A stretch of DNA of 64,000 bases from Promethearchaeia archaeon (GTDB lineage: Archaea; Asgardarchaeota; Lokiarchaeia; Sigyniarchaeales; SOKP01), in the NCBI GenBank assembly GCA_046483985.1, contig JAWOCD010000040.1, forward strand, positions 56,409 to 120,408, in the 5' to 3' direction. The notes under the pieces are model-generated. The model was not told the DNA's origin and ran no database searches. It saw only the letters and a list, made by a program, of their open reading frames with translations. Of the stretch, positions 1,144 through 20,755 are shown in pieces. Within the stretch, counting starts at the first letter, position 1, and each line of letters begins with the position of its first letter. The position numbers and the translations under genes are program-made.

Positions 1144-2076
1144 TTATTCGCCTTTGATAATTTTCTCTAGATAAGGGAAAAATCTGGTGTAATGGACTGC
1201 CATGCAATGGATACCGTCAATTAAATCCTTGCTTTTGAGCTCTGTAATAAATGGTTTAAAGTGCTTATAGTTCAGTTCGTCGTACATCTCCCTCTTCTTC
1301 TCTTTATTGGGGGCATTTTTCTTTACGTCTTTCCAACTCGCAAGGACCTCTTTTGGAACATCTACTCCAGGCACAAACATATCAAAACCTTTTGCAATAC
1401 CATAAGATTTCATCGGAAAAATTCCAAGCATTATCGGCACATCATATTTTTTAATTTCTTTTAAAAATTCGATGGTTTTGTCGATATCATAGACAACTTG
1501 TGTTTGAAAGAATTCTGCTCCTGCTTTTGCCTTTCTCTTGATTTTAAGCACTTCAGACATCATCGGATCTGCATTTGGATTCGCAGCCGCACCAACATGA
1601 AGAGTGGGTGGATGTTCGATTTCTTCTCCATTTATCTTCCCAGTATCAACCATTTCTCTTACCATCTGAACAAGAGTAGCGGAATCTAAATCAAATACGG
1701 GTTTACATTCCGGCATATCTCCCATTGCAGGATGATCTCCGGTAAGTGACAGTACATTCCGAATTCCTAATGCATGTGCTCCCATAATCATTCCAGCAAT
1801 GCCTAATCTATTACAATCTCGTACAGTTAATTGCCATACACATTCCAAACCCGTCTCATCTTGGATAATTTTTGTAGCTGCCATCGAATTAATGGTGACA
1901 ATGCCCAGCGGACTGTCGGTGACGTTCGCGGCAGTCACATATGGAGCCATTTCCTTTGCCTCTTCTACTGTATGGGAAAGATCGCATGTTTTCTCAGGTT
2001 CAAGTTCTCCAGTTAACACAAAATCTCCACTAGCTAATTTTTCTCCTAATTTTGAATATATTTTCTTATCTGACAT
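1144..2076 (-). CDS. metF: Methylenetetrahydrofolate reductase catalytic subunit (copy 1)
   Basis: GELEP, NVTD, 'RDCNR', 'LSLTGD', 'KAKAGAEFFQTQ' and 'GIHCM' MTHFR motifs; directly downstream of metV. Confidence 0.9.
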   Translation of the reverse strand: MSDKKIYSKLGEKLASGDFVLTGELEPEKTCDLSHTVEEAKEMAPYVTAANVTDSPLGIVTINSMAATKIIQDETGLECVWQLTVRDCNRLGIAGMIMGAHALGIRNVLSLTGDHPAMGDMPECKPVFDLDSATLVQMVREMVDTGKINGEEIEHPPTLHVGAAANPNADPMMSEVLKIKRKAKAGAEFFQTQVVYDIDKTIEFLKEIKKYDVPIMLGIFPMKSYGIAKGFDMFVPGVDVPKEVLASWKDVKKNAPNKEKKREMYDELNYKHFKPFITELKSKDLIDGIHCMAVHYTRFFPYLEKIIKGE

Positions 2077-2091
2077 TTGTCTAATTCACCT

Positions 2092-2772
2092 CTATCTAAA
2101 TACAACCTCTTGCTGGTGCCCAGTATCTGACCAGTCTCGAGGTTCTCGTAGTTTTTCGAATAAATCTAACCTTCCTAAGGCTTTTAACCGCTCGAAAATT
2201 AGGACCCAGCCGCAATCTCGTTCGTAATCGTCCACTTCACACTTTCCTTCCACCATACCGCCGCATGGACCATTCATAAGTCCTTTTGCGCACGTAGTAA
2301 TAGGGCAGATGCCTCCCGTATAATTTAACAAACAGTCTCCGCAAGCTCCACACCGTTTATAAAAACGTCCGATTCGCTTAGTTTCCCCAATAAATTCTGT
2401 GTTATTGGTAATCAATACGGGAACATCAGCATAATCGGAATGTCTCTTCTGAAGCACATGGGTAATACTGGCAACCCCCAATCCGCAACTTAACGTAAGA
2501 ACCGCATCCATCTCAGGTAATATATCTCTGACCTTTCGAAGGTCTTTCATCATCACCCGATTGTCACAAACATCTTCGGCAACGATGGTGGTTAATACTT
2601 CATAGCCTTTTTCAGTGAGTTTTTCCTCCCACTCTTCAGCACCTTCGGTACCGCCAGTCTGGCAGAGTGCGGCACAAGTCCCGCAACTGACCAACAAAAT
2701 CTTTTCTACGCCAAAATCTTCTAGCGCTTCAAAAACCTCTTCTTTAGGTTTTTTCGTGGTAATAACTACCAT
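2092..2772 (-). CDS. metV: MetV-type Fe-S/Zn subunit of MTHFR (copy 1)
   Basis: 'CGTCAALC', 'CGACGDC...GGICPITTCAKGLMNGPCGG...CEV...CGW' Cys pattern; 15 nt upstream of metF. Confidence 0.88.
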   Translation of the reverse strand: MVVITTKKPKEEVFEALEDFGVEKILLVSCGTCAALCQTGGTEGAEEWEEKLTEKGYEVLTTIVAEDVCDNRVMMKDLRKVRDILPEMDAVLTLSCGLGVASITHVLQKRHSDYADVPVLITNNTEFIGETKRIGRFYKRCGACGDCLLNYTGGICPITTCAKGLMNGPCGGMVEGKCEVDDYERDCGWVLIFERLKALGRLDLFEKLREPRDWSDTGHQQEVVFR

Positions 2773-3263
2773 TTTTATTATACCTCTTTAAGTTATTTAA
2801 TTATTTATGATAACATTTATTTTGTAGTTAGGAAAATTAATGAGAGAAATTAAGGTTAATCCTTACATATCATAAGTGAAATTATAGTAGAGCGATCTTG
2901 TCATCGTGAACATTTTCGCTTTTCAGATATACTTTCTCTTGATTATTGACGAAAATGATAGTTTGAGAGGCTTTTTTATGTCATTTTCAACAAAAGCATA
3001 AATCGAATATGAAAAGTTATAATATTTTTTGAATTGAAGAAAAATTTGGGTATTGTTCAATCAGATCAAAATAAAGACGAATAGGAATTAATGATTGATG
3101 AATAATTAATAAAAAATTCAATACTCCTAAAAAGCTAGATTGAGATTTATAGATTCAAATCGATAATTTTAAATCCTAATGTCTATTATTTCTATGTGAG
3201 TCTTAATAATAAAACGATAAAGGAATACACAAAGAATTGGTGATTTAAATAGCTGTAACTTAC

Positions 3264-4946
3264 ATGAAGAAGCTGGAAGAAGAACCAAGATCATATAAAT
3301 CCCAGTTTACGCAATTAACAAAAGGTATAAACTTAAAAGCTCAAGAATGGATTTTATCGAAGGTCGATACCAACCAATCGATTCTGGAAGCGGGTTGTGG
3401 AACGGGTTTATTAGCACATAAACTAGCCCTTAAAGGAAATACGGTGAGGGCAATAGACAAGAACCCCAAAATGATAGAATTTGCTTCGGACAAATATCAG
3501 CAAGATAAGGAGAACAATCTTACATATCAAGTTGCTTCTATTGAAGATTTACCAGTTGATCAAAGATCACAAGATATCATCATCAGTACCTTTATGCTTT
3601 CGGAATTAAGGCCATTTGAACAGCAAACTTTTCTTCGGAACGCTTGGAAGGCTCTAAAAGAGGGGGGGAAACTAATCCTTGCTTCAGAATTTATAGCCTC
3701 AGGTATATGGAAATTGGGCTTCAAGTTAAAAAGATGGAGATATAAAAAAAAATTAGAACGCCTTAAACTCCCCGCCACTCATCCCTTGGAAAATTTTTAC
3801 CAGTATTTAGAACCAATAGGGTTTAAAATTCTTAACGAAACCAAATGGAATCACGGCACTATCCATGTACTTGAATTACAGAAGACAATTAGAGGAGATC
3901 TGGATCAGAACGATGAGGAAGGATTATCTAAAAATAAACCAGGGTACTATCGTCCAGAATCCCTTAAATTTAAGGGATTAAGTTCACAGTTAAAAATCTA
4001 CCGGTGTCTTTTTACGGGACAAATAGATAATGTGCCGATAGAACCTGGAATTTATCAATCTGGCAATCCTGATAAGGAATCACCAATCATAGTTACGGCA
4101 AACTATTACTACACCTATGCAAAGGTTATGCGCAACTTAGAAGGGATTGATGCTTGGGTTTTATGTGTTGATACAAATGGAATTAATGTGTGGTGTGCCG
4201 CTCGAGGGGGAGACTTCGGTAATCAGCAATTATTAGAAGCGATAAACGCCACCAATATTCAAGACCTAACAGACTCTCGTACCCTGATACTCCCTCAATT
4301 AGCCGCGGGAGGGGTTGCGTTACCCAAACTTCCTGAAGATCCAAAAGATTTTCCATTTTCCGTAGAATATGGTCCGATATGGTCCAAATATCTAAAAGAG
4401 TATCTCAAACAAGAAGGGGGGCAGAGAAAGACTCCCGAAATGAAACGAGCAAAATTTACGCTTTCCCATAGAATCAGGGCGGGAGTGACCCATACCACCT
4501 TTCTATTCCGAAAAATCTTTGCAAAACCTCTGATAGTGATTTTTTTGGCTCTTTTCCTCCTTAACTACTTTAATTTTATAAATAGATTATGGTGGATGGG
4601 GGACCTCATTTTATGGCTTTTAATCCCCAATTTACTCATTCCAATCATATATCCCCTTTCCCAATTTACAAGAAAATTTATCTTTAAGGGAACCTTATTT
4701 GGTACTATAAATATCTTCCTCTCGGGTTTTATCTCATGGGTAATGTATGGATCCTTACTGTATTCTGCACTTAATTCCATACTTTTTTTCTGGATAACTT
4801 TCTTCAGTACAATGTCCTTTAGCGGTTATACGATGTCAACAAACCCCCGAAAAATTCAAGAGGAATACTCAACATTCCGTAAAATCAACGTTATTTTACT
4901 GTTATCAGCGATAATATTAACATTTTTAAGTTTAGTATTTATTTAA
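3264..4946 (+). CDS. hgcA: HgcA-like corrinoid protein with N-terminal class I SAM-methyltransferase domain and C-terminal transmembrane domain
   Basis: N-terminal 'ILEAGCGTG' SAM motif I; central 'EPGIYQSGNPDKESPIIVTANY...LCVDTNGINVWCAARGG...LILPQLAAGGV...YGP' (CdhD/HgcA corrinoid domain with cap-helix NVWCAA); about 5 TM helices ending 'FSGYTMSTNPRKIQEE'; followed by an hgcB-like gene. Confidence 0.82.
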   Translation: MKKLEEEPRSYKSQFTQLTKGINLKAQEWILSKVDTNQSILEAGCGTGLLAHKLALKGNTVRAIDKNPKMIEFASDKYQQDKENNLTYQVASIEDLPVDQRSQDIIISTFMLSELRPFEQQTFLRNAWKALKEGGKLILASEFIASGIWKLGFKLKRWRYKKKLERLKLPATHPLENFYQYLEPIGFKILNETKWNHGTIHVLELQKTIRGDLDQNDEEGLSKNKPGYYRPESLKFKGLSSQLKIYRCLFTGQIDNVPIEPGIYQSGNPDKESPIIVTANYYYTYAKVMRNLEGIDAWVLCVDTNGINVWCAARGGDFGNQQLLEAINATNIQDLTDSRTLILPQLAAGGVALPKLPEDPKDFPFSVEYGPIWSKYLKEYLKQEGGQRKTPEMKRAKFTLSHRIRAGVTHTTFLFRKIFAKPLIVIFLALFLLNYFNFINRLWWMGDLILWLLIPNLLIPIIYPLSQFTRKFIFKGTLFGTINIFLSGFISWVMYGSLLYSALNSILFFWITFFSTMSFSGYTMSTNPRKIQEEYSTFRKINVILLLSAIILTFLSLVFI

Positions 4947-5006: not shown

Positions 5007-5354
5007 TTGAATGATATGATTCGAAATACAATAAATGACAAAGAGAATTCTAGTTGTTGTTCGTCTCCTAATATGGGAAATATTATGGGGGCACTTGATA
5101 TTCCGGTTTTTATTGATCCGTCAAAATGTGTAGGATGCGGTTTTTGTGAAGAATTATGCCCCTTTGGGCTTCCCAAAAATGACGGAAAGGGAAAATATTA
5201 TGTGGAGGCCCCCGAAGAATGTGTTGAGTGCAGTGCATGTCAGCGAAACTGTCCTGCAGATGCAATCATCTTGGAGGAACAAAAAGGATGTGGGTGTTTA
5301 TGGGATGCAAAAAACCGAATAAAGGAAAAGAATAATACATCTAAATGCTGTTAA
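5007..5354 (+). CDS. hgcB: HgcB-like 2x[4Fe-4S] ferredoxin
   Basis: CxxCxxCxxxCP twice (CVGCGFCEELCP; CVECSACQRNCP), 'GCGC' and terminal 'CC'; immediately downstream of the hgcA-like gene. Exact start uncertain. Confidence 0.8.
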   Translation: MNDMIRNTINDKENSSCCSSPNMGNIMGALDIPVFIDPSKCVGCGFCEELCPFGLPKNDGKGKYYVEAPEECVECSACQRNCPADAIILEEQKGCGCLWDAKNRIKEKNNTSKCC

Positions 5355-5567: not shown

Positions 5568-6299
5568 TTACTCACCATATGATGATTCTGCCATTCGCTC
5601 TGCCAATTCTTCTTTCAATTCTCGAATAAATCGGTTTAGTTCTTCACTTTGAGAAAGAAATTCTTCATTATGCAGCCCATTTATTAAAGAGAGAATATGA
5701 ATTATGCCAGAAACCTCCTTATCACATGTGTGCCCGAACCGAGGTGCTCTGCATTCATGGCAGACACGGAGAGCAAAATCTTGGAGAGTTTCAACATCCA
5801 ACTTCTTATTTTGTATAAACTTAGCACCTGCCTCTGAAGAGCCACAAGGAGAAACTCGTCTAATTTTTATAAACTTTACATCTCCATTATTATCTACTTT
5901 AAGATCAAAATTAGGTTTTCCGAATTTCTCAGCAAAAGCGTCAATCTCTTGAATCCGCATATTGGGTTCTAATGAACACATTGTGCGCGGACCGATTGAT
6001 TTTGAATTTATATCTTTTACTTGCCTTAATAGACCTCTCCCAGGAGTTATCCCTAATATTAATGGTTTTTGAAGTTCTGCGATTTCTAATATGATATCTG
6101 GGTGCCTAACATACACAACATATAAGTCACATTCTGGGATTTTTAAATCTAATCCATCATCAAGCATAATATTCGGTGAAATATCGGGAACTTCAATCCA
6201 GTTAGTGGAAAAAAATCTCTTAAAGTTTTCATAAGCTCTTTCCCCATATTTTCCATCTGTAATTAACCCAATAGTTATGACTCTATCTTCTTCATTCAT
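5568..6299 (-). CDS. DUF166-family protein
   Basis: 'DGKYGERA', 'HPD', 'P..MCSL', 'FGKP', 'RVSPCGS' and a C-terminal Cys/His pattern typical of archaeal DUF166. Confidence 0.65.
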   Translation of the reverse strand: MNEEDRVITIGLITDGKYGERAYENFKRFFSTNWIEVPDISPNIMLDDGLDLKIPECDLYVVYVRHPDIILEIAELQKPLILGITPGRGLLRQVKDINSKSIGPRTMCSLEPNMRIQEIDAFAEKFGKPNFDLKVDNNGDVKFIKIRRVSPCGSSEAGAKFIQNKKLDVETLQDFALRVCHECRAPRFGHTCDKEVSGIIHILSLINGLHNEEFLSQSEELNRFIRELKEELAERMAESSYGE

Positions 6300-6342: not shown

Positions 6343-6762
6343 TTATTTTGTCCCATAGAGCTCGTCAACTTTTTGAGAGATCTCTTCCGCTATAATTTTT
6401 GCTAATTTCAAACCTTTATCTCCTAAGCGTCTTGAACTATCTGGAATTAATTCTGGGTGGGCATCCATAAATTCTTTAACATTAACCATCGCCGCGGGTT
6501 TTCCACTATATTTATCTACGGCAACCCTTGCACATTCCTCTTCACAGCCTTCTACAGTAATGGTTGGATGATTCTTAGCAAAATCTCTCTCTTCTTGGCC
6601 TCCATGTCTTTCCAAACCCCCAGCCATAAAGAGTGGTTGGCATAAAATGATTGTTCGATTGGGACGTAATTCTTCAACGACCATTCTTGCAGCCGCTCTT
6701 GTTAAGGTACCCCCAACTAAATCTTCTCCACTACAAGCGATAATCCCTACTTTTTTTTTCAA
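6343..6762 (-). CDS. DGC-domain (putative Zn/metal-binding) protein
   Basis: 'IIACSG...C...TVEGCEEECA'; start placed at TTG 6762 after GGAGGAGG SD rather than 6801. Confidence 0.75.
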   Translation of the reverse strand: MKKKVGIIACSGEDLVGGTLTRAAARMVVEELRPNRTIILCQPLFMAGGLERHGGQEERDFAKNHPTITVEGCEEECARVAVDKYSGKPAAMVNVKEFMDAHPELIPDSSRRLGDKGLKLAKIIAEEISQKVDELYGTK

Positions 6763-6763
6763 C

Positions 6764-7186
6764 TTAATCCTCCTCCTTCTCATTATTATGAAGTAATTCA
6801 TCTACTTTAGTAGCTATTTTTTCGGCAAGTTTTTTTGATAATTTTTTTGTATTTTCGCCAATGGGTATAATTTTTTGTTCTGGTTTAAGATCTCGATTCT
6901 CTTTTACCACATCTGTGGTCATAAATTGAGCGTCCACCTTACCAGTAGCTTTTTTGAGGTCGTTAAATGAGCATTTTAGAGGGCATCCATCAACCGAAAT
7001 TACATAATTTTCTTTCATTTTTTTGATTGTTTCGTCTTTCCCCTTAACAATCAATGGTAAACATTCGATTTCTGCTTTTTTTTTAGCCAATTCATCCACA
7101 ACAATATAAGCCGCTTCTCTGCCAATGCTACCAAAAACTTTCCCTATTCCACTACAAGGTATAATATATACTTTTTTCTTATTCAT
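6764..7186 (-). CDS. DGC-domain protein
   Basis: 'IIPCSGIGK...CLP...SVDGCPLKCS' DGC signature. Confidence 0.82.
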   Translation of the reverse strand: MNKKKVYIIPCSGIGKVFGSIGREAAYIVVDELAKKKAEIECLPLIVKGKDETIKKMKENYVISVDGCPLKCSFNDLKKATGKVDAQFMTTDVVKENRDLKPEQKIIPIGENTKKLSKKLAEKIATKVDELLHNNEKEED

Positions 7187-7197
7187 TTCACATACAT

Positions 7198-8073
7198 CTA
7201 TTCTTTTTTATGATGATTTTTTTCCTTTTCCGCTTTATCTTTCATATATTTAAAATAATCTGGACCATCCATCAAAAATTCCTTATCTTCTTCAAAATTT
7301 TCTAATTTTATTTCGGCAAACCACCCTTTTTGATAAGCATCTTTATTCAATAATTCGGGTTGGTCATTTAAGTTGTGATTAATATTTATAATCTCTCCAG
7401 AGGCAGGAGAAATAAGCTGCAGAACCGTTTTTGTAGATTCAAAATTCCCTACGTCATCAAATTGTTCAATCTTTTTACCTTTTTCTGGAAGATCAACAAA
7501 TAAGATATCACCAGCACTATTTTGTAAATAGTCCGAAATTCCAAGAAGTGCAGTATCTCCTACTGGTTTTACCCAACAATCGTTCTCATTAAAATAGTAT
7601 CCCGATTTTGGGACTCGAAATCTGTATTTATCGATAACCGTTTCAAAATAGTTAATTTCATCAAATTCTCTTTCTTTGCCTTCAATTTTCTCCTTAGGCT
7701 CTGTTAATTCGTCCATGATATATTTAGAAATTTTTTCTACTAATTTTTCTCCTTCTTCAGTTAAAGTTAAATCCTTACCAGGTTTCATCTTAAATTTTTT
7801 CAACATCTCCGGTATTGAAACTCTTAAAACAATATTGGATTGAATATTCTTAACTAATTTGGTTGCACAACGTGTCATACATCCATCGATAATTATGACT
7901 TTATAGTTAGTTACCATTTCTTCATATTTTTCGTTTCCCGAATTCAATGATACCGGACAAATAATTTTGATATTATCTTCCATTTCATTGAGTTTTAAGG
8001 CGACTTCTCTTGCGACTACGCCAAGAATCTTATCTAATCCATTACACGGCAAAACACATAGTTTTTCTTTCAT
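7198..8073 (-). CDS. DGC domain fused to a glycine-cleavage-H-like lipoyl domain
   Basis: N-terminal 'LPCNG...ICP...IIDGCMTRCA'; C-terminal 'WVK...LGISDYLQ...GDILFVDLP...FESTKT...SPASGEI...N..L..QPELLNKDAY..GW' with the lipoyl-acceptor Lys (ESTK) retained. Confidence 0.85.
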   Translation of the reverse strand: MKEKLCVLPCNGLDKILGVVAREVALKLNEMEDNIKIICPVSLNSGNEKYEEMVTNYKVIIIDGCMTRCATKLVKNIQSNIVLRVSIPEMLKKFKMKPGKDLTLTEEGEKLVEKISKYIMDELTEPKEKIEGKEREFDEINYFETVIDKYRFRVPKSGYYFNENDCWVKPVGDTALLGISDYLQNSAGDILFVDLPEKGKKIEQFDDVGNFESTKTVLQLISPASGEIININHNLNDQPELLNKDAYQKGWFAEIKLENFEEDKEFLMDGPDYFKYMKDKAEKEKNHHKKE

Positions 8074-8092: not shown

Positions 8093-8389
8093 TTATTTCC
8101 CTCTAATCTTTTTAATCTGAGCCTTAACGTCTTTTTTATCTGGAAAAGAAAGTGCGTCCAAAGGACATGCTTTTGAACACGCTCGACAAAACACAACACA
8201 ATTATGGGGATGTTTAACAATTAATTTTTTTTCCTCGCTTTCTATTTTTTCAAAGACATCATGCGGACAAAATTCAGTACAATCCATACAAAAATCGCAC
8301 TTATCATAGTCTATTGTTGGATGCCATTCAATTTTATTTCGTGGGACTCCCATAAATGTTTCTTTATTTGAATCATATCCCTTACTCAT
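8093..8389 (-). CDS. 4Fe-4S dicluster ferredoxin
   Basis: CDFCMDCTEFCP and CVVFCRACSKACP; start probably the Met at 8389, overlapping the upstream gene's stop. Confidence 0.85.
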   Translation of the reverse strand: MSKGYDSNKETFMGVPRNKIEWHPTIDYDKCDFCMDCTEFCPHDVFEKIESEEKKLIVKHPHNCVVFCRACSKACPLDALSFPDKKDVKAQIKKIRGK

Positions 8390-8777
8390 TATTCTCATCC
8401 TCCTTGATTTCTTTTAATGTTTTTTCTACTAAATCCACGGCTTCTTGAGTTGTCATTTCTCTTATATCTAGAGGGACTAGATCTTCTTTAACATCTAATC
8501 CCGCCTTTTTAAATGCGTCCTTGAATAGTTTATATTGCATGGTTGCAGCACATCCAGCAACCATATATTTTTTTCCAGCTTTTAGAAAATCATCCCAAAA
8601 CCTATCGCCATCTTCCTCACATAATTGTGGGTGGATAAATCCGTATTCCACGGGTAATTCAATTCGAACTTGGTTAATGAAATCCCAAATATCCATCTTG
8701 GCAAAACCAGGACATTTTCCCGTGCAGACACACATTATAAATCCAATCTTTTTTTCTTCTTGTGCTTCTGAACTCAT
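8382..8777 (-). CDS. Stand-alone HdrA N-terminal-like Cys domain protein
   Basis: 'KIGFIMCVC...LC...MVAGC...LFKDAFKKAGL...DIRE' aligns by eye with 'RIGVFVCEC...YSC...VVAAC...LFQKTIREAGL...SIRE' inside HdrA (22294..25830). Confidence 0.75.
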   Translation of the reverse strand: MSSEAQEEKKIGFIMCVCTGKCPGFAKMDIWDFINQVRIELPVEYGFIHPQLCEEDGDRFWDDFLKAGKKYMVAGCAATMQYKLFKDAFKKAGLDVKEDLVPLDIREMTTQEAVDLVEKTLKEIKEDENNE

Positions 8778-8842: not shown

Positions 8843-8953
8843 TATGCATTAATACGCATAGATGCATAAAGTTTCTCTCTTATATTTTAAATTCCTTAAA
8901 CTTATATTAGAATAAGAATATTTTTAATTTGAATATATGTAAAATAATACATA
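8843..8953. promoter_or_regulatory. Two candidate ArsR operator inverted repeats in the divergent promoter region
   Basis: TATGCA-N6-CGCATA (8843-8860) and TATGTA-N6-TACATA (8936-8953); same 6-6-6 geometry, one near each divergent start. Confidence 0.55.
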
Positions 8954-8964
8954 CATAAATCAAA

Positions 8965-9288
8965 ATGGATCTAAAACCACTAAAAATAAAAACATTAAAA
9001 GCATTATCGGATGAAACAAGATTAGAGATAATAAGTCTTCTACGTCATGGTGAGGAGCTTTGTGGATGTGAGCTCGAAAAGGTAATTGATAAATCCCAAT
9101 CGACAATCTCCAGACATTTAAAGAAACTTGAAGAGGCAGATTTGGTCGAAAGGCGAAGAGAAGGAGTTAAAGTACTTTATAGAATTAAAGATCCTAAGAT
9201 ATACAAATTACTAGCTGTTCTTAATAATTTAATAAAAAGGAACAATAAATTTAAAAAAATCGTAGAACTTCAAAAAGAAATAAAATAA
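8965..9288 (+). CDS. ArsR/SmtB-family metalloregulator
   Basis: 'KALSDETRLEII...ELCGCEL...SQSTISRHLKKL...G...Y'; ELCxC alpha3 metal site. Confidence 0.92.
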   Translation: MDLKPLKIKTLKALSDETRLEIISLLRHGEELCGCELEKVIDKSQSTISRHLKKLEEADLVERRREGVKVLYRIKDPKIYKLLAVLNNLIKRNNKFKKIVELQKEIK

Positions 9289-9300
9289 ACAAAAGGTGGA

Positions 9301-9582
9301 ATGATTAAATTGAAAGAAAATGAGAAATTAAAGATCGATATTTATGTGCCATTAAATGTTTGCTCGTGCCAATGGGAGGGTTTTATGAACTCTATATTTG
9401 CAGAGCTTAAAAAATACAAGGAGCATATTGATTTCCAAACAAAAAATCTTAAATCTGAAGAAGCAAGGAAATTAAATTTGCATGGAAATAGTGTAGTTAT
9501 TAATGATGAGGAAGTCGTTAAATCTTCGTTTAATCTCAAGAGAAAATTACCGAAAATCTTAGAAGAAAAGGGCTTGATTTAA
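9301..9582 (+). CDS. Small thioredoxin-fold-like protein with CxC motif
   Basis: 'KIDIYVPLNVCSCQW...SVVINDE'; in the arsR operon. Confidence 0.5.
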   Translation: MIKLKENEKLKIDIYVPLNVCSCQWEGFMNSIFAELKKYKEHIDFQTKNLKSEEARKLNLHGNSVVINDEEVVKSSFNLKRKLPKILEEKGLI

Positions 9583-9584
9583 AG

Positions 9585-10046
9585 TTGAATGAACACAAAA
9601 AAAGTCTTGATAATATAGTTTTAATTCCTTGTTCTGGGTCTGAATATAATGGGGAATTAGCCCGCCAAGTAGCTATTAGATTAAATGACGAGGGAGTTAT
9701 TTCCAAAAATAGTTCTATGTTATGTTCGACTACATTTTTAAAAAACATCTTGCTCGAAAAACAATCCTTGGTGGATATCACAAAAAATAATCTTAAATCA
9801 AGTTTTCTTATTGTAATAGAGGGATGTAAAAGTTCGTGTAAAAGTCTTATCCTTAAACAATTAGGGATAAACCCCGATATGATTTTTCACGTAGATCAAA
9901 TTGTACCCAAAGAAAGATTAAATCTGAGTGATCTTGAGGTCTTTAAAAACCGTCCTCGACTCAGTAATATTAAAAAAGACGATATCTCAAAAATGGTTGA
10001 TTATATTATAAAGAGTCTAAAAGAAAAGGGATATAATCTTAATTAA
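9585..10046 (+). CDS. DGC-domain protein
   Basis: 'LIPCSGSEYNGELARQVA...C...VIEGCKSSC'. Confidence 0.75.
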   Translation: MNEHKKSLDNIVLIPCSGSEYNGELARQVAIRLNDEGVISKNSSMLCSTTFLKNILLEKQSLVDITKNNLKSSFLIVIEGCKSSCKSLILKQLGINPDMIFHVDQIVPKERLNLSDLEVFKNRPRLSNIKKDDISKMVDYIIKSLKEKGYNLN

Positions 10047-10134: not shown

Positions 10135-10785
10135 TTGGAAGTCAATTTTTTAGTAGCTTTTTTAGCAGGATTAGTAATCGGAGCAACACCTTGTATTTTG
10201 TTAATGCTTAGTGCTTTTGGATCCTCTTTAATATTAAGGGGAGAACGAAAAAATTTCATTAATATTTCCCTCGGTTTATTGTCAGGTTTTGTACTTGGAT
10301 ATATATTTATTTCCATTATCTTTTTATTTTTTGTGCCAATGTTTGAGATGCTCTATTATTTCAAATATATATTTGCGGGAATCTTGATTTTTATAGGAAT
10401 TTGGCAAATTCTTGATTATAAAAATGAGGACAGCAGAGTTTTTAGTACACCCCAAAAGGTAAAATCAGTATTGAAAAATTTTATTAAAAAAAGAACAGGG
10501 ACTTATGCGCTTTTAGTTGGAATCATATTTGTCTTTATTAAAATGCCTTGTTTTGGCGGTGTATATTTGTCCCTTCTTTATAATCTGCATAAAAACCCTC
10601 TTCTTTATGTATTTATAATGTGGTATATAATAGGTATGTTAATGCCTATCACTCTGATCTTGATTTTACTCCGATTAGGTTTAAAATATAAAAAAATTAA
10701 TAATTTCAGATTAAAATATCGGCCATATTTGAGGTTATTAAGTGGAGGAGTTTTAGTATTTCTTGCAATCTATTTACTGATATAG
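10135..10785 (+). CDS. CcdA/DsbD-family transmembrane thiol-redox protein
   Basis: About 6 TM helices with 'TPC' and 'MPC' membrane cysteines. Confidence 0.8.
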   Translation: MEVNFLVAFLAGLVIGATPCILLMLSAFGSSLILRGERKNFINISLGLLSGFVLGYIFISIIFLFFVPMFEMLYYFKYIFAGILIFIGIWQILDYKNEDSRVFSTPQKVKSVLKNFIKKRTGTYALLVGIIFVFIKMPCFGGVYLSLLYNLHKNPLLYVFIMWYIIGMLMPITLILILLRLGLKYKKINNFRLKYRPYLRLLSGGVLVFLAIYLLI

Positions 10786-10961: not shown

Positions 10962-13900
10962 ATGCTTTCCGAAGACACAATAATATTGTTCGGAATTACC
11001 CCTGGGGTTACCGAATTCCGAAAAGTTTATAATATGCTCAAGTATTTTATGAAGGAAAAGAAGGAAATCGACTATAATGACAGATTTAACATCATCTTTT
11101 TTACTGGTGAGGGGCCCAAGTATTTTGAGGATTTTACTTTAAATCCCGCTCATCTATTAGAGACCCTTAGTGACTCGAAGTCCGAGATAATAGAGGCGGA
11201 TATTGCGGGGGGTATCTTTATCTCTGCTATGTACGTTGTTGAAGTATTTCAGAAGATCTCGGGGAAGTGCTTTCGAATGATTATTCTTTCCGATTCGGGA
11301 TCAAAAAAAATTCCTGAAAAACAAATGTCCTTTCTCTCCGATTTGTTAGAAAAAATTACGGATATACCATTCATTATGGACGCCGTTCGAATAGATGGGG
11401 ATGACCCCCGAGATGATTTACGATTGATGAAATTAGCGCGACGGACTGGAGGAGATCTTTATGAGATTGACGAAATAGATCAAGAAGCTGCAGAAGCGGA
11501 AACCTCTGCTAAGGAAAAGGAGAAAACGGTAATCGAAATGCTTGGAAAGTTATCCCGAACTCCACTCAATCTTGCCAAGAAACTGAAAAAAGAAGTACAA
11601 GAAGAGGAAATGCAGGAAAAAGAACAATTCAGCGACCTCCAAGATGTCTTAAATCATCTAAAGGGCAAAAAGAAGGTGGAAGCCGAATTATTTGAGGTAA
11701 ATAATATGGAAGATATTCCTCCAAAAAAAAGGGTATTTTATGAGGGATTAGGCGAGCCCCTTCAGCCAGTAGGCGGGGAAGGAAATAAACGGTGCATGAT
11801 CTGCTTCACGTCTTTAAAAAATCAAGAGTTACTAAAGTGCCCCAATTGTAAGAATATTGCACATAAAATCTGCTTTGCCATCTGGGCAAAGAAATCAAAC
11901 ATAGGCATTCCCCACATATTTCGATGTCCTAATTGCTATAGTTTAATTAAAATGGACAGCGATTTAATTAAAAAGGTAAATAGAGTGAAAACGCCCACCA
12001 TTGAGGTGTGTAAGGATCTTGAAAACGTTTGCTTGGAAGAATACTTGGAATCCTTGGAATCTCCCGAAGGACCTAAAGTGATTACCTCAGAGGAAGGGAG
12101 TTTTAGTGAAGTGGAAGAAGAGACGGAAGAAGAATCCAAACAGAAAGTGGAAACGGAAGGAGTATCTAAAAGGGCAGAAACAGATGATAAAGAATTGAAA
12201 ATGATATGGTGTCCCAAGTGTGGAAAGATGATTACCAATGAATATAATCGCTGTCCACAGTGTGGATATAAATTAAGAAAAGTAAAACCGAGCGAAGGGA
12301 GGGAAGCAGCATCACAACGGCAAGAAGAAGCAGAGATTTTATCACAAATTAGTGAACTAAAGGTCAAGGAAAAAAGCGATCTAAAGGCCAAAAATCACAG
12401 GCAAGCAATTCAAAAAGCCCAGAAGATTAGAAAGTTGGCCAAACAGTTGGGAAAAGAAGAAATGGTACAAGAACAAGAAAACTTTATAGAGAAAGTAGAG
12501 GAAGAACGGAACCTTGGAGAGATGAGGAAAGATTACAATAGGAAATTCAGTTATTTAAAGAATAAAGTCAGCAATTTACTTAAACACAATGCCATTTCCA
12601 AAGCCTATCAAGCTGTAGAGGATTTCTCTGTACAAAATGAGGATTTAATTTCATCTCTTGCAACCCCCGAATATGAAAAATTTAAAACAAAGATTACAGA
12701 TCTGTATCAAGGAAAAGGTAAACAAGAGAAGAAAAAGACCAAAACAGGAGGGATAAAACAAGTAAGTAGTCAAGCAACTGAAGAAGATATTTGGGAAAAA
12801 TTGGATGAAAAGGAAGGCGAGATTAAATCAAAGATAGGGGAAATAACAAAATTAAACGAAGCTCGGAAACAAATCTCTCAAAAAGTTGAAAATCACGAAT
12901 ATGATGGAGCCATCAAAATTTTAAACTCCGCGATTGATGACATAAGCAGTCAAGAACTTGCAGAATATAAGAGGAGTTTGCAAGAAAAAAAAGCAAAAAT
13001 TCGGAGAAAAAAGAAAAAGCATAACAACTTGTCCAAAAAAATAACAAAGGAACAAAAGAAATATGAGAAGAATCATAAGAAAGATAATCTTTACGCTGCA
13101 TTAAATTACGCCACGAATGTGAAATTGTTGGCAGGACAATTACAAAACGCTGAACTTAAAGAAAAGTATTCCGAAATTGAGAAAGATCTCGTAGAGGAAA
13201 TAGAGGATCAAAAGGAAAAAGATGTCGTTGAAGGAGACGAATTGGAGGAGGACCTGAAATCCTTGGAAGATACCATTAAGATCGAGTATTTTGACGATGA
13301 CCTTATCCCAATTATAAAAAAATACCATTTAGACGAATTAGAACAGAAACACGCGAACTCGGAAAAGATTATTAAGGTTGCTTCCAAACGTTTAAAAGAA
13401 AATCGTAATAAGATGAAAGAAAAAATAACGCAAGAGCTTATAGTATACTCTTCGAATGGTGAAGTTTTCCAAAAGCAAGCCCAACTCGGAATTGAGAGAA
13501 TAGAAAAGAGCAAAAAAGTCAAAAAGGACGTATTCAAAAAGATCGTAGAGTATAAAATAGAGTATAAGCCCAATTTCTCTGCGAAAAGAATTGAAGATCT
13601 AACAATTCAATTGAAGGTACCCTATCACTTCAAATTAACATCGCTTTTTATTCACGAGCAAGAATTTATCAATTTAGCGATAAAACAACCAACTAAAGGT
13701 GGATTAAAATATTCTTTTATATTGGAGGATTTATCCCTTTCACGGGGATTCTCCATTCATTACCAGTTGGAGAGACATATTTCAAGGATTTTGCTCTTTA
13801 CAAAAAAGAACTATCTGTACATGATCAAGTGCTTTTATAACGTTTCAGTCCCTTCAAGTGAAGCAAGCTCGAAGATTTTATTGCCCTTCGATATTAATGA

Positions 13901-14228
13901 TGCACAGGATTTTAATTGGTTAATCATCGAAGATATATTTCCAATAAATTACAGCCCAGTTATTCTTGAACCAGAAAACTTGGAATGCGCAGAATCCTCT
14001 CTGGACGAAAAGGGAAAATTAGTCGGTTGGATTTTGGAAAATTTATCCGCGGGCACTCACTTATTTCAATATTTATTAGTTTCACCAGAGAAACTCGCAT
14101 TACTAACCAATTATCTTCAGAAAAAGCTTCAAAATGCAGATGCATTTTTACAACACGGGAATCTCATAGGTTTCAAAAAAAATGTGGAGGAGCTCAGTTC
14201 GATCATCCGTAAAGAGCTAAAATCATAA
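10962..14228 (+). CDS. Large vWA-like + C4HC3 (PHD/RING-variant) finger + C4 Zn-ribbon + coiled-coil + beta-rich C-terminal protein
   Basis: vWA-like N-terminus ('DRFNIIFF','FRMIILSD','LMKLARRTGG'); CMIC...CPNCKNIAHKIC..W...CPNC; WCPKC...CPQC; long K/E-rich helical region. Confidence 0.65.
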   Translation: MLSEDTIILFGITPGVTEFRKVYNMLKYFMKEKKEIDYNDRFNIIFFTGEGPKYFEDFTLNPAHLLETLSDSKSEIIEADIAGGIFISAMYVVEVFQKISGKCFRMIILSDSGSKKIPEKQMSFLSDLLEKITDIPFIMDAVRIDGDDPRDDLRLMKLARRTGGDLYEIDEIDQEAAEAETSAKEKEKTVIEMLGKLSRTPLNLAKKLKKEVQEEEMQEKEQFSDLQDVLNHLKGKKKVEAELFEVNNMEDIPPKKRVFYEGLGEPLQPVGGEGNKRCMICFTSLKNQELLKCPNCKNIAHKICFAIWAKKSNIGIPHIFRCPNCYSLIKMDSDLIKKVNRVKTPTIEVCKDLENVCLEEYLESLESPEGPKVITSEEGSFSEVEEETEEESKQKVETEGVSKRAETDDKELKMIWCPKCGKMITNEYNRCPQCGYKLRKVKPSEGREAASQRQEEAEILSQISELKVKEKSDLKAKNHRQAIQKAQKIRKLAKQLGKEEMVQEQENFIEKVEEERNLGEMRKDYNRKFSYLKNKVSNLLKHNAISKAYQAVEDFSVQNEDLISSLATPEYEKFKTKITDLYQGKGKQEKKKTKTGGIKQVSSQATEEDIWEKLDEKEGEIKSKIGEITKLNEARKQISQKVENHEYDGAIKILNSAIDDISSQELAEYKRSLQEKKAKIRRKKKKHNNLSKKITKEQKKYEKNHKKDNLYAALNYATNVKLLAGQLQNAELKEKYSEIEKDLVEEIEDQKEKDVVEGDELEEDLKSLEDTIKIEYFDDDLIPIIKKYHLDELEQKHANSEKIIKVASKRLKENRNKMKEKITQELIVYSSNGEVFQKQAQLGIERIEKSKKVKKDVFKKIVEYKIEYKPNFSAKRIEDLTIQLKVPYHFKLTSLFIHEQEFINLAIKQPTKGGLKYSFILEDLSLSRGFSIHYQLERHISRILLFTKKNYLYMIKCFYNVSVPSSEASSKILLPFDINDAQDFNWLIIEDIFPINYSPVILEPENLECAESSLDEKGKLVGWILENLSAGTHLFQYLLVSPEKLALLTNYLQKKLQNADAFLQHGNLIGFKKNVEELSSIIRKELKS

Positions 14229-19110: not shown

Positions 19111-20049
19111 TTAGAATTCTTTAAGTAAAGGGTCAAAAAGTCGTTCATACTCGACAGCCATACAGTGAATTCCCGCAGCCTTCGTTGTTCTCTTGATTTC
19201 CTTGATAAAGGGTCTGAAAAAGTCCAAATTGATTTGATCAATAGCTTTTTTCTTTGCTTCCTTGTCATCTTTGTAATCTTTCTTGACTTTCTTTAGTGAG
19301 CTCAGTAATTCGTTTGGAACGCTAACACCCGGAATATATTTATCAAAATACCAAGCTATACCGTAAGCTTTCAGCGGGAAGATGCCTAACAATACTGGCA
19401 CGTTGAATTTCTCCAATTCCTTCAAAAACTCCTTCGCCTCGTCAATATCAAACGCAGTTTGCGTCTGAATGAAATCCACACCTAAATCTACTTTCCGAGC
19501 CACCTTAAGAATCTCTGGGGCCCGCGGCTTGCTGTTGGGGTTCGCCACGCAGCCAACGTTCATCTCAACACTCCCACCTTTAATTTCATTTCCCTCAAGA
19601 TCCGTTCCTTCATCTATGATCTTATTGAGCAATTCCAGGAATTGTGTGCTGTCGAGGTCATATACAGCTCTTCCTCGTTTATGGTCGCCAAGGGCCGTAT
19701 GATCTCCAGTAAGGGTAAGTATATTTTTTATTCCAAGTGTTGCCGCTCCCAATATATCTCCGAAAAGCGCCACCCGATTTCTATCGCGAACCGTCACTTG
19801 CCAGACCGTTTCTATGCCCACTTCCTCTTGTACCTTATAACTCGGGACCATCGAACACATGTATGCGTCGCCTTGGGGACCGTCTGTCACATTTACCGCA
19901 GTGATTTGCCCTGAGTCTTTCATCTTCTCTGCTGACTCGAGTATTTCGCTGAGATCCATAATCTTTTTTGGTTCCAACTCTCCTGTGAAGGTAAATTTTC
20001 CATCTCGGAGCGATTTCATCAATTGAGAATATGCTGGCCGTTTAGCCAT
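19111..20049 (-). CDS. metF: Methylenetetrahydrofolate reductase catalytic subunit (copy 2)
   Basis: Same MTHFR motifs as copy 1 (GELEP, NVTD, RDRNR, LTGDH, QTQ, GIHCM); start reassigned to ATG 20049 (MAKRP), overlapping the metV stop. Confidence 0.9.
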   Translation of the reverse strand: MAKRPAYSQLMKSLRDGKFTFTGELEPKKIMDLSEILESAEKMKDSGQITAVNVTDGPQGDAYMCSMVPSYKVQEEVGIETVWQVTVRDRNRVALFGDILGAATLGIKNILTLTGDHTALGDHKRGRAVYDLDSTQFLELLNKIIDEGTDLEGNEIKGGSVEMNVGCVANPNSKPRAPEILKVARKVDLGVDFIQTQTAFDIDEAKEFLKELEKFNVPVLLGIFPLKAYGIAWYFDKYIPGVSVPNELLSSLKKVKKDYKDDKEAKKKAIDQINLDFFRPFIKEIKRTTKAAGIHCMAVEYERLFDPLLKEF

Positions 20050-20755
20050 GTTCCTTCCCCTCCTGCTGCTCTTTTTGGATCTGCTCAAAGGGTTTATTAA
20101 TTTCAATAAACGAAGGGCTGGTTCGAAGCCGGTAATCTCGCGGCGATCGATATTTCCTAAACAAATCGAGCCTGTCAAACTTTTTGAGCCGTTCATAAAT
20201 TTTTACCCACGCACATTCGTGTTCGTAACCACCCACCTCGCACATGCCGTCTACTTGGCCTCCACAAGGTCCGTTACTGAGATGCTTTGCGCATCCCGCC
20301 ATGGGACAAATACCACCCGTTTCCGCCAGAATACATTCCCCGCAAGATTCACAGTATTCCACGAAGGTATTTTCTCCTTTATTTTCGGCACCGCCAAACA
20401 TACTATCTTGCGCCGGAAAGGTTAAAATATCCTTCAAGACGCGATTCATCATAACCACGCCGAGCCCGCACGCTAAAGATACGATGGCATCGTAATCCAC
20501 CACATGAGGACTCACCGTACTGGCCACAATCCGATCATCGCATTGCCGCAGCACTGTAATCGATTTCCACTCCAAGTCATTTCCTTCGGTCTTGGCTTTC
20601 AATTCCAAGAGTTGCCCAAGCACCTTCGCCTCATTAATCGAGCGGGGAGGCTGACAGCAGCCGTCACAGCCCGCAATCAGTATCTTGTCGTACGGTTCAA
20701 TCATCCGATAAATTTTGTCTACTTCCTTTTGTTGAGTAATTATCAAATTATTCAC
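20042..20755 (-). CDS. metV: MetV-type subunit (copy 2)
   Basis: 'GCDGCC', 'CESCGEC...GGICPMAGCAKHLSNGPCGG...CEV...CAW'. Confidence 0.88.
   Translation of the reverse strand: MNNLIITQQKEVDKIYRMIEPYDKILIAGCDGCCQPPRSINEAKVLGQLLELKAKTEGNDLEWKSITVLRQCDDRIVASTVSPHVVDYDAIVSLACGLGVVMMNRVLKDILTFPAQDSMFGGAENKGENTFVEYCESCGECILAETGGICPMAGCAKHLSNGPCGGQVDGMCEVGGYEHECAWVKIYERLKKFDRLDLFRKYRSPRDYRLRTSPSFIEINKPFEQIQKEQQEGKEHG

Follow-up and report, generated by a model that had tools for sequence, protein, structure and literature searches.

What does an H-protein do in a cell without the P and T proteins of glycine cleavage, and why is it joined to a cysteine-rich domain in an operon that faces an ArsR-family repressor? 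This question is raised by a gene in the genome of a Promethearchaeia archaeon (Asgardarchaeota; assembly GCA_046483985.1; 4.06 Mb in 128 contigs, 97% complete), which we analyzed within a window of 64,000 nucleotides (part of contig C74; JAWOCD010000040.1, positions 56,409 to 120,408). The gene (P0001; 7198..8073, minus strand), an uninterrupted open reading frame, encodes a 291-residue protein in which a DGC domain precedes a GcvH domain. We find that this DGC-GcvH fusion is real and conserved, that it seems to be an undescribed way of using a lipoyl carrier, and that its context ties it strongly to arsenic islands; we propose, rating the chances as about even, that it lies at the heart of a thiol relay that responds to arsenic or another metalloid and is controlled by ArsR.

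An original prediction, made from the sequence, had described a cysteine-rich DGC domain joined to a complete H-protein-like domain that retains the acceptor lysine in FESTKT, and both halves prove to be full members of their families. The DGC domain (PF08859) spans residues 6-114 (7732..8058, minus strand; Pfam E 7.7e-16, 58.5 bits against a cut-off of 27) and has four conserved cysteines; the H-protein domain (GCV_H, PF01597) spans residues 159-279 (7237..7599, minus strand; E 4.8e-35, 120.6 bits against a cut-off of 22.2). Overall, the DGC part covers approximately residues 1-125 and is followed by a helical linker and disordered stretch (126-141) and an extended H-protein domain (142-291). 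FESTKT corresponds to residues 211-216, and the lipoyl-acceptor lysine is K215 (codon 7429-7431), within E212-S213-T-K215; it is invariant in an alignment of 45 fusions and in a comparison of nine fused, split and free forms. Among the DGC cysteines, C39 (codon 7957-7959), C65 (7879-7881) and C69 (7867-7869) are invariant in the 45-sequence alignment and C10 (8044-8046) is conserved in at least 90% of it. An AlphaFold2 model built from the same alignment (mean predicted local distance difference test score, pLDDT, of 91) places the C-terminal half on the pea H-protein (1dxm_A; Z 22.8, root-mean-square deviation 1.0 Å over 131 residues) and gives the N-terminal half a flavodoxin-like alpha/beta fold. 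The best solved neighbor of this DGC half is 3pu6_A, an uncharacterized Wolinella protein (Z 9.3), followed by generic flavodoxin-like structures (Z 8.6 or less); a profile of DGC sequences retrieved nothing from the PDB at E up to 10, an ESM Atlas search with a stand-alone DGC protein gave no usable match, and we draw no functional inference from this kinship. In the H-protein half, C166 (codon 7576-7578, motif FNENDCW) is invariant in the 45-sequence alignment and aligns with the glutamate of the canonical "HEW" motif, a residue that reportedly touches the docked end of the lipoamide arm in the pea H-protein. C166 and the lipoyl arm might together complete a three-thiol As(III) site, as a possibility specific to this clade; as a general feature such a site was demoted, since distant cassette variants lack C166.

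Is the fusion then simply an H-protein with an extra domain? Its GcvH domain does score at the family thresholds (TIGR00527, 115.2 against 115.85, just under; NF002270, 118.4 against 117, just over) and its modeled fold is identical to that of the pea protein. However, neither GCV_T nor GDC-P has a match anywhere in the genome, Biotin_lipoyl domains and a 2-oxoacid dehydrogenase E2 were likewise not found in it, and a second, free-standing GcvH is present (139 residues; contig C17, L003:9420-9839), in which "HQW" replaces "HEW" and a 10-residue insert precedes the ES-x-K motif. These two H-proteins are the sole detectable lipoyl acceptors of the genome. Because P, T, E2 and any other lipoyl domain are missing and a separate GcvH exists, the fusion is not a glycine-cleavage component; it also always occurs in the company of the Fe-S and DGC genes described below, and we consider an ordinary role in glycine cleavage barely credible. 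The predicted place of the protein outside glycine cleavage is thus supported, and the fusion is not the only H-protein of its genome. The accompanying claim that gcvP, gcvT and gcvL are missing from the window extends to the whole genome for the first two; the L-protein is encoded elsewhere, as a dihydrolipoyl dehydrogenase, LpdA, on contig C60 (L068:5870-7381; TIGR01350, 479.8 bits against a cut-off of 408.8). On contig C29, LplA, with its catalytic domain, is flanked by LipS1 and LipS2 (L004:5443-8299; NCBIfam scores of 260.9 against 230 and 341 against 270, respectively), in an operon that is unlinked to the fusion in this genome. The presence of LplA-LipS1-LipS2 and LpdA therefore means that the cell should be able to make and redox-cycle protein-bound lipoate. 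Judging from these genes, from the invariant lysine and from LplA and LpdA genes that lie beside the homologous genes of Bacillota, lipoylation of the fusion is plausible.

The fusion belongs to a collinear cassette of five genes, which encode an HdrA-N-terminal-like Fe-S protein, a 2x[4Fe-4S] ferredoxin, DGC-GcvH and two stand-alone DGC proteins. This cassette recurs in 61 loci, collected from a scan with one genome per species, and the fusion is always found inside it. In the window, the two Fe-S proteins that had been named as possible partners of the lipoyl arm are indeed encoded directly upstream, in one leftward operon that runs through mini-HdrA, ferredoxin, DGC-GcvH, DGC, DGC and a DUF166 gene with junctions of -17, +19, +11, -38 and +43 nucleotides. 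The first gene (8382..8777, minus strand) encodes a cysteine-rich protein of 131 residues (125-131 across loci), similar to the HdrA N-terminal domain and to MvhD, with invariant C16, C18, C22, C53 and C76 and a mean column identity of 72% between archaeal and bacterial sequences. It is matched by neither Pfam nor NCBIfam models. The phmmer alignment to residues 5-94 of HdrA (7bkb_A) matches the cysteine columns at a weak E of 0.17, and a Foldseek search with its model (pLDDT 83) returns HdrA chains from three Hdr complexes as the top six matches (probability 1.0, E 1.6e-3 to 5e-2), followed by MvhD; VIA-align returned generic folds only. The protein is a single domain, with neither a flavin adenine dinucleotide (FAD)/thioredoxin-reductase domain nor ferredoxin inserts, and because it has no FAD domain it is not an HdrA; "mini-HdrA" seems a fair description of what the models suggest is a stand-alone HdrA-N-terminal/MvhD-like Fe-S domain. 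A common origin of DGC and mini-HdrA was considered and is unsupported (hhalign probability 7.6%).

The second gene, for a ferredoxin of 101 residues (8093..8398, minus strand; Pfam Fer4 families; about 97 residues across loci), overlaps the first by 17 nucleotides and is kept in 59 of the 61 loci. Downstream of the fusion come DGC_b (6764..7186, minus strand; 140 residues; Pfam DGC, 59 bits), whose orthologues directly follow the fusion in 58 loci, and DGC_c (6343..6801, minus strand; Pfam DGC), which has orthologues in 59 loci and whose longest open reading frame gives 152 residues, the true start probably lying a few codons later. In DGC_b the four cysteines and Arg23 are invariant, and all DGC paralogues retain four cysteines and one arginine. 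Some bacterial orthologues of DGC_c carry in addition cysteine-rich tails of the GCxCG type (GCGCGCGCGC, GCCCGS..C, GCSCGS; L024:3352-3804, L037:9241-9720, L046:9253-9705, L051:9260-9700 and L057:9256-9705), which recall soft-metal-binding tails.

A search for the combined DGC and GCV_H architecture and for its gene neighbors, as the original prediction had suggested, found the fusion in both Archaea and Bacteria. A word-indexed protein search gave 513 clusters, and nearly all of the best 120 of these 513 share the two-domain architecture; an exhaustive search among 1.84 billion sequences gave 32 representatives at E up to 1e-30. The homologues are named as Lokiarchaeota/Promethearchaeia and other Asgard archaea, and cassette carriers further include Bacillota (Clostridium ljungdahlii, Eubacterium callanderi/limosum, Acetobacterium, Moorella/Neomoorella, Caloramator, C. 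tepidiprofundi and "Formimonas" among them), Bacteroidota, one Dehalococcoidales (Chloroflexota) genome and one Actinomycetota genome. In the fusion tree the main Asgard group stands opposite the bacteria with moderate support, Bacteroidota are nested within Bacillota, and two long-branch Asgard variants are unplaced. Two cassettes from assemblies with bacterial names, L007 (DATKTW010000027.1, "Candidatus Nanopelagicaceae bacterium") and P0100 ("Deferrimicrobium"), are 62% and 50% identical to the Asgard one; the position of L007 inside the Asgard clade suggests mis-binned Asgard contigs. Among 201 sampled Asgard genomes, at least about 30 have a full-length fusion, compared with 190 that have some GcvH match, and within the window's own family the fusion is found in 7 of 41 genomes. 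Such patchiness is the pattern expected of an accessory resistance trait. Other Asgard lineages have split or reduced cassettes (L069:6049-7773, L070:5050-6398 and L071:6109-7881), in which a CxxC Trx_3/ArsE-like protein (128-131 residues), two DGC proteins and an unfused GcvH (150-163 residues) are encoded next to ArsR, Acr3 or ArsP, and mini-HdrA and the ferredoxin are missing. DGC and GcvH are thus partners in the fused and in the unfused form, and because a Trx_3-like protein takes the place of the Fe-S pair, this pair behaves like an exchangeable reductant supply.

The genomic context of the cassette provides the link to arsenic. Flanking open reading frames (8 kb to each side) were clustered over the 61 loci and the recurrent families annotated; a subset of 50 long loci of at least 9 kb each (8 from Asgard archaea and 18 from Bacteroidota among them) served for counts per locus. 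ArsR is encoded in 43 of the 50 long loci, and 34 hold at least one core ars gene, counting Acr3, ArsC, ArsM-like, ArsP, ArsA and ArsD; of random 17-kb stretches, about 1% would be expected to contain an ars gene, a rough figure derived from one or two ars loci per genome and not a computed control. Over all 61 loci, the most frequent neighbor is ArsR (45 loci), followed by Acr3 (21), DsbD/CcdA (DsbD_TM; 19), Pyr_redox_2/dim flavoproteins of the LpdA type and Thioredoxin_3 proteins of the MTH895/ArsE family (15 each), ArsC of the low-molecular-weight protein tyrosine phosphatase type and ArsM-like methyltransferases (11 each), rhodanese (9), LplA (7) and ArsA and ArsD (6 each); ArsP occurs in 14 of the 50 long loci. 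Lipoate genes are among these neighbors: in 13 of the 50 long loci, all from Bacillota, LpdA immediately precedes the cassette, and LplA is within the flanks in seven loci, six of them bacterial, and directly downstream in two (L026 and L043). Individual maps show the gene orders. In "Formimonas" (L043) the order is LpdA, mini-HdrA, (ferredoxin), DGC-GcvH, DGC, DGC, LplA and ArsR, then a further ArsR, Acr3 and an ArsM-like gene; L057, a chromosome from Bacteroidales, encodes on a single strand Trx_3, CcdA, mini-HdrA, ferredoxin, DGC-GcvH, DGC, DGC, ArsR, ArsC, an ArsM-like protein and Acr3; and the cassette of C. ljungdahlii (L032) has Acr3, ArsA, ArsC and ArsR for neighbors. The association spans three phyla and two domains of life and holds for the split arrangement as well.

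In the window itself the cassette is not linked to genes for arsenic efflux, reduction or methylation, and the tie to ars islands consists of an adjacent, divergent ArsR-family repressor with an ELCxC cysteine pair. This repressor (8965..9288, plus strand; 107 residues; Pfam HTH_5, NCBIfam HTH_metalloreg 93.6 bits) carries an ELCGCEL motif that presumably resembles the ELCVCDL As(III) site of the R773 ArsR, and it opens a rightward operon of four genes. The next gene encodes a small CxC protein (9301..9582, plus strand; 93 residues, "VCSCQW"), possibly of thioredoxin fold and matching no family above its cut-off, with orthologues beside ArsR in 5 of the 8 long Asgard loci. It is followed by DGC_d, the fourth DGC protein of the window (9585..10046, plus strand; 153 residues; Pfam DGC, 50 bits), and by a candidate CcdA/DsbD-like membrane thiol:disulfide transporter (10135..10785, plus strand; 216 residues), proposed on the basis of one "PC" cysteine in each of two transmembrane segments, which has no Pfam match. 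The leftward operon ends with the DUF166 gene (5568..6299, minus strand; 243 residues, six cysteines; Pfam DUF166), found beside the cassette in 3 of the 8 long Asgard loci; its product matches the DfsP DUF166 (seleno)protein model weakly, below the cut-off.

Between the divergent operons, an inverted repeat, TATGCAT-N12-ATGCATA, lies at 8843..8868 beside a TATA-like box (TTTATAAA). The block is kept at the equivalent position in four Asgard loci (L006, L007, L013 and L014), its TATGC-N16-GCATA form is unique to this site in the 4.06-Mb genome, and the shorter core ATGCAT-N12-ATGCAT has one unrelated second copy, on contig C2; the palindrome is a plausible ArsR operator. A different element marks acr3: the 11-mer ATTCAAATCGA, present in 10 copies in the genome, occurs twice in the acr3 promoter (C101:104752 and 104772), at the promoter of an ArsR paralogue (C101:86652; gene C101:86181-86615) and upstream of an HgcA-like gene (C74:59561, approximately position 3153 of the window), with further sites at C11 ~5950, C18:75814 and C87:35184. 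On C11, a palindromic variant, GGATTTGAATCGAAATCC, precedes a pair of stand-alone DGC genes. ATTCAAATCGA may serve as the operator of another ArsR regulon, and since acr3 and the DGC pair have this motif in common, the DGC family is linked to arsenite efflux in this genome. An operator shared by the cassette and acr3 was considered and set aside, the cassette palindrome being unique and the two promoters having only short AT-rich words in common; the cassette seems instead to form a divergon of its own, under local regulation.

How could such proteins work together? In the relay that we propose, the H-protein domain would be lipoylated on K215 by LplA/LipS1/LipS2, and its dihydrolipoyl dithiol would cooperate with the tethered tetracysteine DGC domain and with the two neighboring DGC proteins. 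Reducing electrons could flow from reduced ferredoxin through the 2x[4Fe-4S] ferredoxin and mini-HdrA to these sulfurs, or alternatively, or in addition, from NADH through dihydrolipoyl dehydrogenase. The reduced set of dithiol and tetrathiols might then bind As(III) or organoarsenicals as thiolate complexes, or it might reduce pentavalent arsenicals or arsenic-blocked protein disulfides, and the product would go on to the proteins that export or methylate arsenic in the ars island (Acr3, ArsP, ArsA/D or ArsM). We favor this reading because the fusion architecture is conserved and does not serve glycine cleavage, because the machinery for lipoate is kept without the classical lipoyl enzymes, and because the collinear cassette, its ArsR, ars, LpdA and LplA neighbors, the split variant and the GCxCG tails point the same way, as do the palindrome of the ArsR divergon, the connection by ATTCAAATCGA of acr3, the ArsR paralogue and the DGC pair, and the patchy distribution. 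It is further suggested by an arsenic-induced operon in P. mercurii ND132: RNA sequencing showed induction of the ArsR-ArsP-ArsE operon, which is predicted to hold a DGC-domain gene of unknown function (preprint 10.1101/2022.10.17.512643). A wider claim may be entertained more tentatively, and we are inclined to doubt it at present: that in anaerobes of two domains of life arsenic is detoxified by an undescribed machine whose working part is a protein-bound lipoyl dithiol. In this machine, electrons would pass from ferredoxin through mini-HdrA, or from LpdA, to lipoyl-GcvH and on to the tetracysteine DGC proteins, and the relay as a whole would either reduce arsenicals or release As(III) from the dithiols that it has poisoned and escort it to Acr3, ArsP or ArsM.

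Several observations weigh against the proposed relay. The cassette of the window is not beside an arsenic pump, the genome's single Acr3 being encoded on contig C101 behind a promoter motif that differs from the cassette palindrome, and 16 of the 50 long loci have no core ars gene within 8 kb. The window's ArsR has below-cut-off matches to the NCBIfam models for BigR and TsoR, and ArsR/SmtB regulators also sense other metals, persulfide or the redox state. The DGC domain is no closer to the arsenate reductase ArsC (1jf8, Z 7.7) than to generic flavodoxin-like folds, a value within the noise level of the tool, and its four cysteines could simply hold zinc or an Fe-S cluster. Finally, the position of C166 is occupied by T, V, L, A or F in other Asgard cassette variants.

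In a first rival explanation the cassette handles sulfur. The same proteins might form a module for sulfur or persulfide trafficking, or for disulfide stress in general, akin to the sulfur-oxidizing Hdr-like (sHdr) system and its carrier LbpA: the lipoyl arm would shuttle sulfane sulfur or reducing equivalents between the DGC proteins, as carriers of the DsrE/TusA type, and the Hdr-like Fe-S protein, and ArsR would sense persulfide or the redox state. A precedent exists in the GcvH-like LbpA with its own LplA/LipS1/S2 pathway (PMC10332631). The first gene of the operon encodes an HdrA-N-terminal-like protein, rhodanese is found in 9 of the 18 long Bacteroidota loci and a class-V aminotransferase, similar to cysteine desulfurases, in four Bacillota loci, and the BigR match of the repressor fits this picture. 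We also take the three tandem paralogues, small alpha/beta proteins with conserved cysteines, to recall DsrEFH/TusBCD. Nevertheless, Pfam searches of the locus proteins detected no HdrB/HdrC (CCG), TusA or DsrE families, core ars genes make up the great majority of the recurrent neighbors, the carriers live by fermentation or acetogenesis rather than by sulfur oxidation, and the ELCGC motif is of the As(III)-sensor type. We therefore regard a sulfur module as unlikely, if still a contender to be taken seriously. With respect to the original prediction, which had offered the lipoyl arm either as a metalloid sponge or shuttle or as a redox or sulfur carrier of the LbpA type, the metalloid idea gains strong backing from the gene context, the use outside glycine cleavage is supported as well, and the sulfur-carrier version is less well supported.

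Might the thiol chemistry be right and the element wrong? Dithiols bind Hg and Sb as well as As, and the target of the relay could be a soft metal or metalloid other than arsenic (Hg(II), Sb(III), Se, Te or Cd/Zn), possibly coupled to a corrinoid methyltransferase of the HgcAB type. A gene for an S-adenosylmethionine (SAM)-dependent methyltransferase fused to an HgcA-like domain and one for an HgcB-like ferredoxin do lie 200 bp beyond the end of the operon, and cation diffusion facilitator (CDF) efflux genes occur in seven long Bacillota loci; yet no HgcA-like gene is among the recurrent neighbor families of the 61 loci, nor are MerA, MerB or MerT, and Acr3, ArsC, ArsM, ArsP, ArsA and ArsD dominate, so that we hold this to be decidedly unlikely. 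We see an equally modest or slightly smaller chance that the DGC domains are purely structural zinc or Fe-S modules and that the cassette encodes a small oxidoreductase, linked to ferredoxin and unrelated in function, which only hitch-hikes in ars islands. A scaffold for lipoate relay or salvage would be an example, and its chance is just as slim. Pfam describes DGC as a probable zinc site, GcvH acts as a lipoyl relay in Bacillus subtilis, and 16 of the 50 long loci show no core ars gene in the 8-kb flanks. Hitch-hiking, however, sits poorly with an ArsR/ars association that recurs in three phyla, two domains and the split arrangement, and with a separate GcvH that is widely conserved while the fusion is patchy.

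If the arsenic-responsive relay is correct, it would turn a familiar picture around. Lipoic acid is a classical cellular target of arsenite, and arsenic resistance has so far been explained by efflux, by thioredoxin- or glutaredoxin-coupled reduction, by methylation and by chaperones; an ArsR-linked lipoyl-carrier system would make the victim part of the defense and add a cofactor-based mechanism. It would also give a first function to the uncharacterized DGC family and a role to a stand-alone HdrA-N-terminal-like Fe-S protein, and it would help to explain why lipoate synthesis and dihydrolipoyl dehydrogenase persist in Asgard archaea and other anaerobes that lack both 2-oxoacid dehydrogenases and the enzymes of glycine cleavage. 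Cultured bacteria, among them genetically tractable ones, carry the same cassette, so that the question can be addressed directly; examples include Clostridium ljungdahlii, Eubacterium callanderi/limosum, Acetobacterium fimetarium, Caloramator fervidus, Clostridium tepidiprofundi and "Formimonas warabiya".

The surroundings of these genes hold further features of interest in their own right. The HgcA-like gene (3264-4946, plus strand) encodes a fusion of 560 residues, in which a SAM-dependent methyltransferase (CpaM/ArsM/TehB-like, residues 1-205) is joined to a corrinoid domain similar to that of HgcA (182.9 bits on HgcA_corrinoid, which falls short of its cut-off of 275), and its promoter carries ATTCAAATCGA as that of acr3 does. 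The HgcB-like ferredoxin gene (5007-5354, plus strand) follows it, and both genes run toward the end of the DGC operon. The HgcA-like gene is preceded by genes for a MetF-like methylenetetrahydrofolate reductase (MTHFR; 1144-2076, minus strand) and for a MetV-like protein, which corresponds to the MTHFR C-terminal domain (2092-2772, minus strand); a second MTHFR is encoded at 19111-20196 (minus strand). Directly after the CcdA-like gene lies an open reading frame of 1088 codons (10962-14228, plus strand) whose product has no Pfam match. Near acr3 on C101 are genes for a small GTPase of the Ras/Roc family with a zinc-ribbon tail (L067:2124-2732) and for a leucine-rich-repeat protein of 482 residues (L067:8778-10226), both typical Asgard "eukaryotic signature" genes; OST3/OST6 is found at L003:11216-11746.

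Where does the cassette stand among known systems? NCBIfam holds no model for the fusion, the DGC proteins or mini-HdrA, and the full-text literature yielded nothing on a DGC-GcvH fusion or on the five-gene cassette, with Haft and Tolstoy 2025, Haft and Gwadz 2023 and Chen et al. 2019 (ArsEFG) lying outside its coverage; in the literature searched we also found no description of a lipoyl cofactor or of Fe-S proteins in any ars system. The models for a "GcvH-related protein" (NF045810) and for TsoR and TsoX hint at a comparable neighborhood of regulator, thioredoxin-like and GcvH-like proteins, but the scores of the GcvH domain, ArsR and the small CxC protein (46.6 against 150, 42.6 against 115 and 18.8 against 52, respectively) are far under the cut-offs, and membership in these families was rejected. 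Among thiol accessories of ars operons (ArsD, thioredoxin-coupled ArsC and the pair of the Trx_3/MTH895 protein ArsE with a CcdA-like partner), the likeness lies in small, cysteine-rich, ArsR-controlled proteins encoded near Acr3, ArsA or ArsP, and stand-alone DGC genes also occur in ars operons, as in the ND132 prediction; the cassette proteins nevertheless have no sequence relationship to ArsD or ArsC.

The H-proteins offer closer comparisons. With GcvH of glycine cleavage the fusion has in common the fold, the ES-x-K lipoyl-lysine hairpin and scores at the family cut-offs, and it differs in the fused DGC domain, in an extra N-terminal beta-hairpin (residues 142-155), in the replacement of the "HEW" glutamate by cysteine in this clade, and in its setting, an Fe-S/cysteine cassette under ArsR in a genome that lacks P and T proteins. 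GcvH-L of the SirTM/macrodomain operon of Firmicute pathogens (5a35; Z 14.5) is likewise an H-protein paralogue with a stress-related role outside glycine cleavage, whereas our cassette has no sirtuin or macrodomain neighbors and differs in its partners and its regulator. LbpA of the sHdr system (Tanabe et al. 2023, PMC10332631) resembles the fusion as a GcvH-like lipoyl carrier that works outside glycine cleavage, is linked to an Hdr-related Fe-S protein and occurs in an organism with a comparable assembly route (sLpl(AB)-LipS1/S2 there, LplA-LipS1-LipS2 in this genome). In contrast to the hdrC1B1A-hyp-hdrC2B2 arrangement, the proteins of the cassette locus include no HdrB/C, CCG or FAD domain, TusA or DsrE3, and the partners of the carrier are DGC proteins in ars islands of fermentative anaerobes. 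The cassette is thus a member of none of the systems compared, and its closest kind is the group of lipoyl carriers that work outside glycine cleavage.

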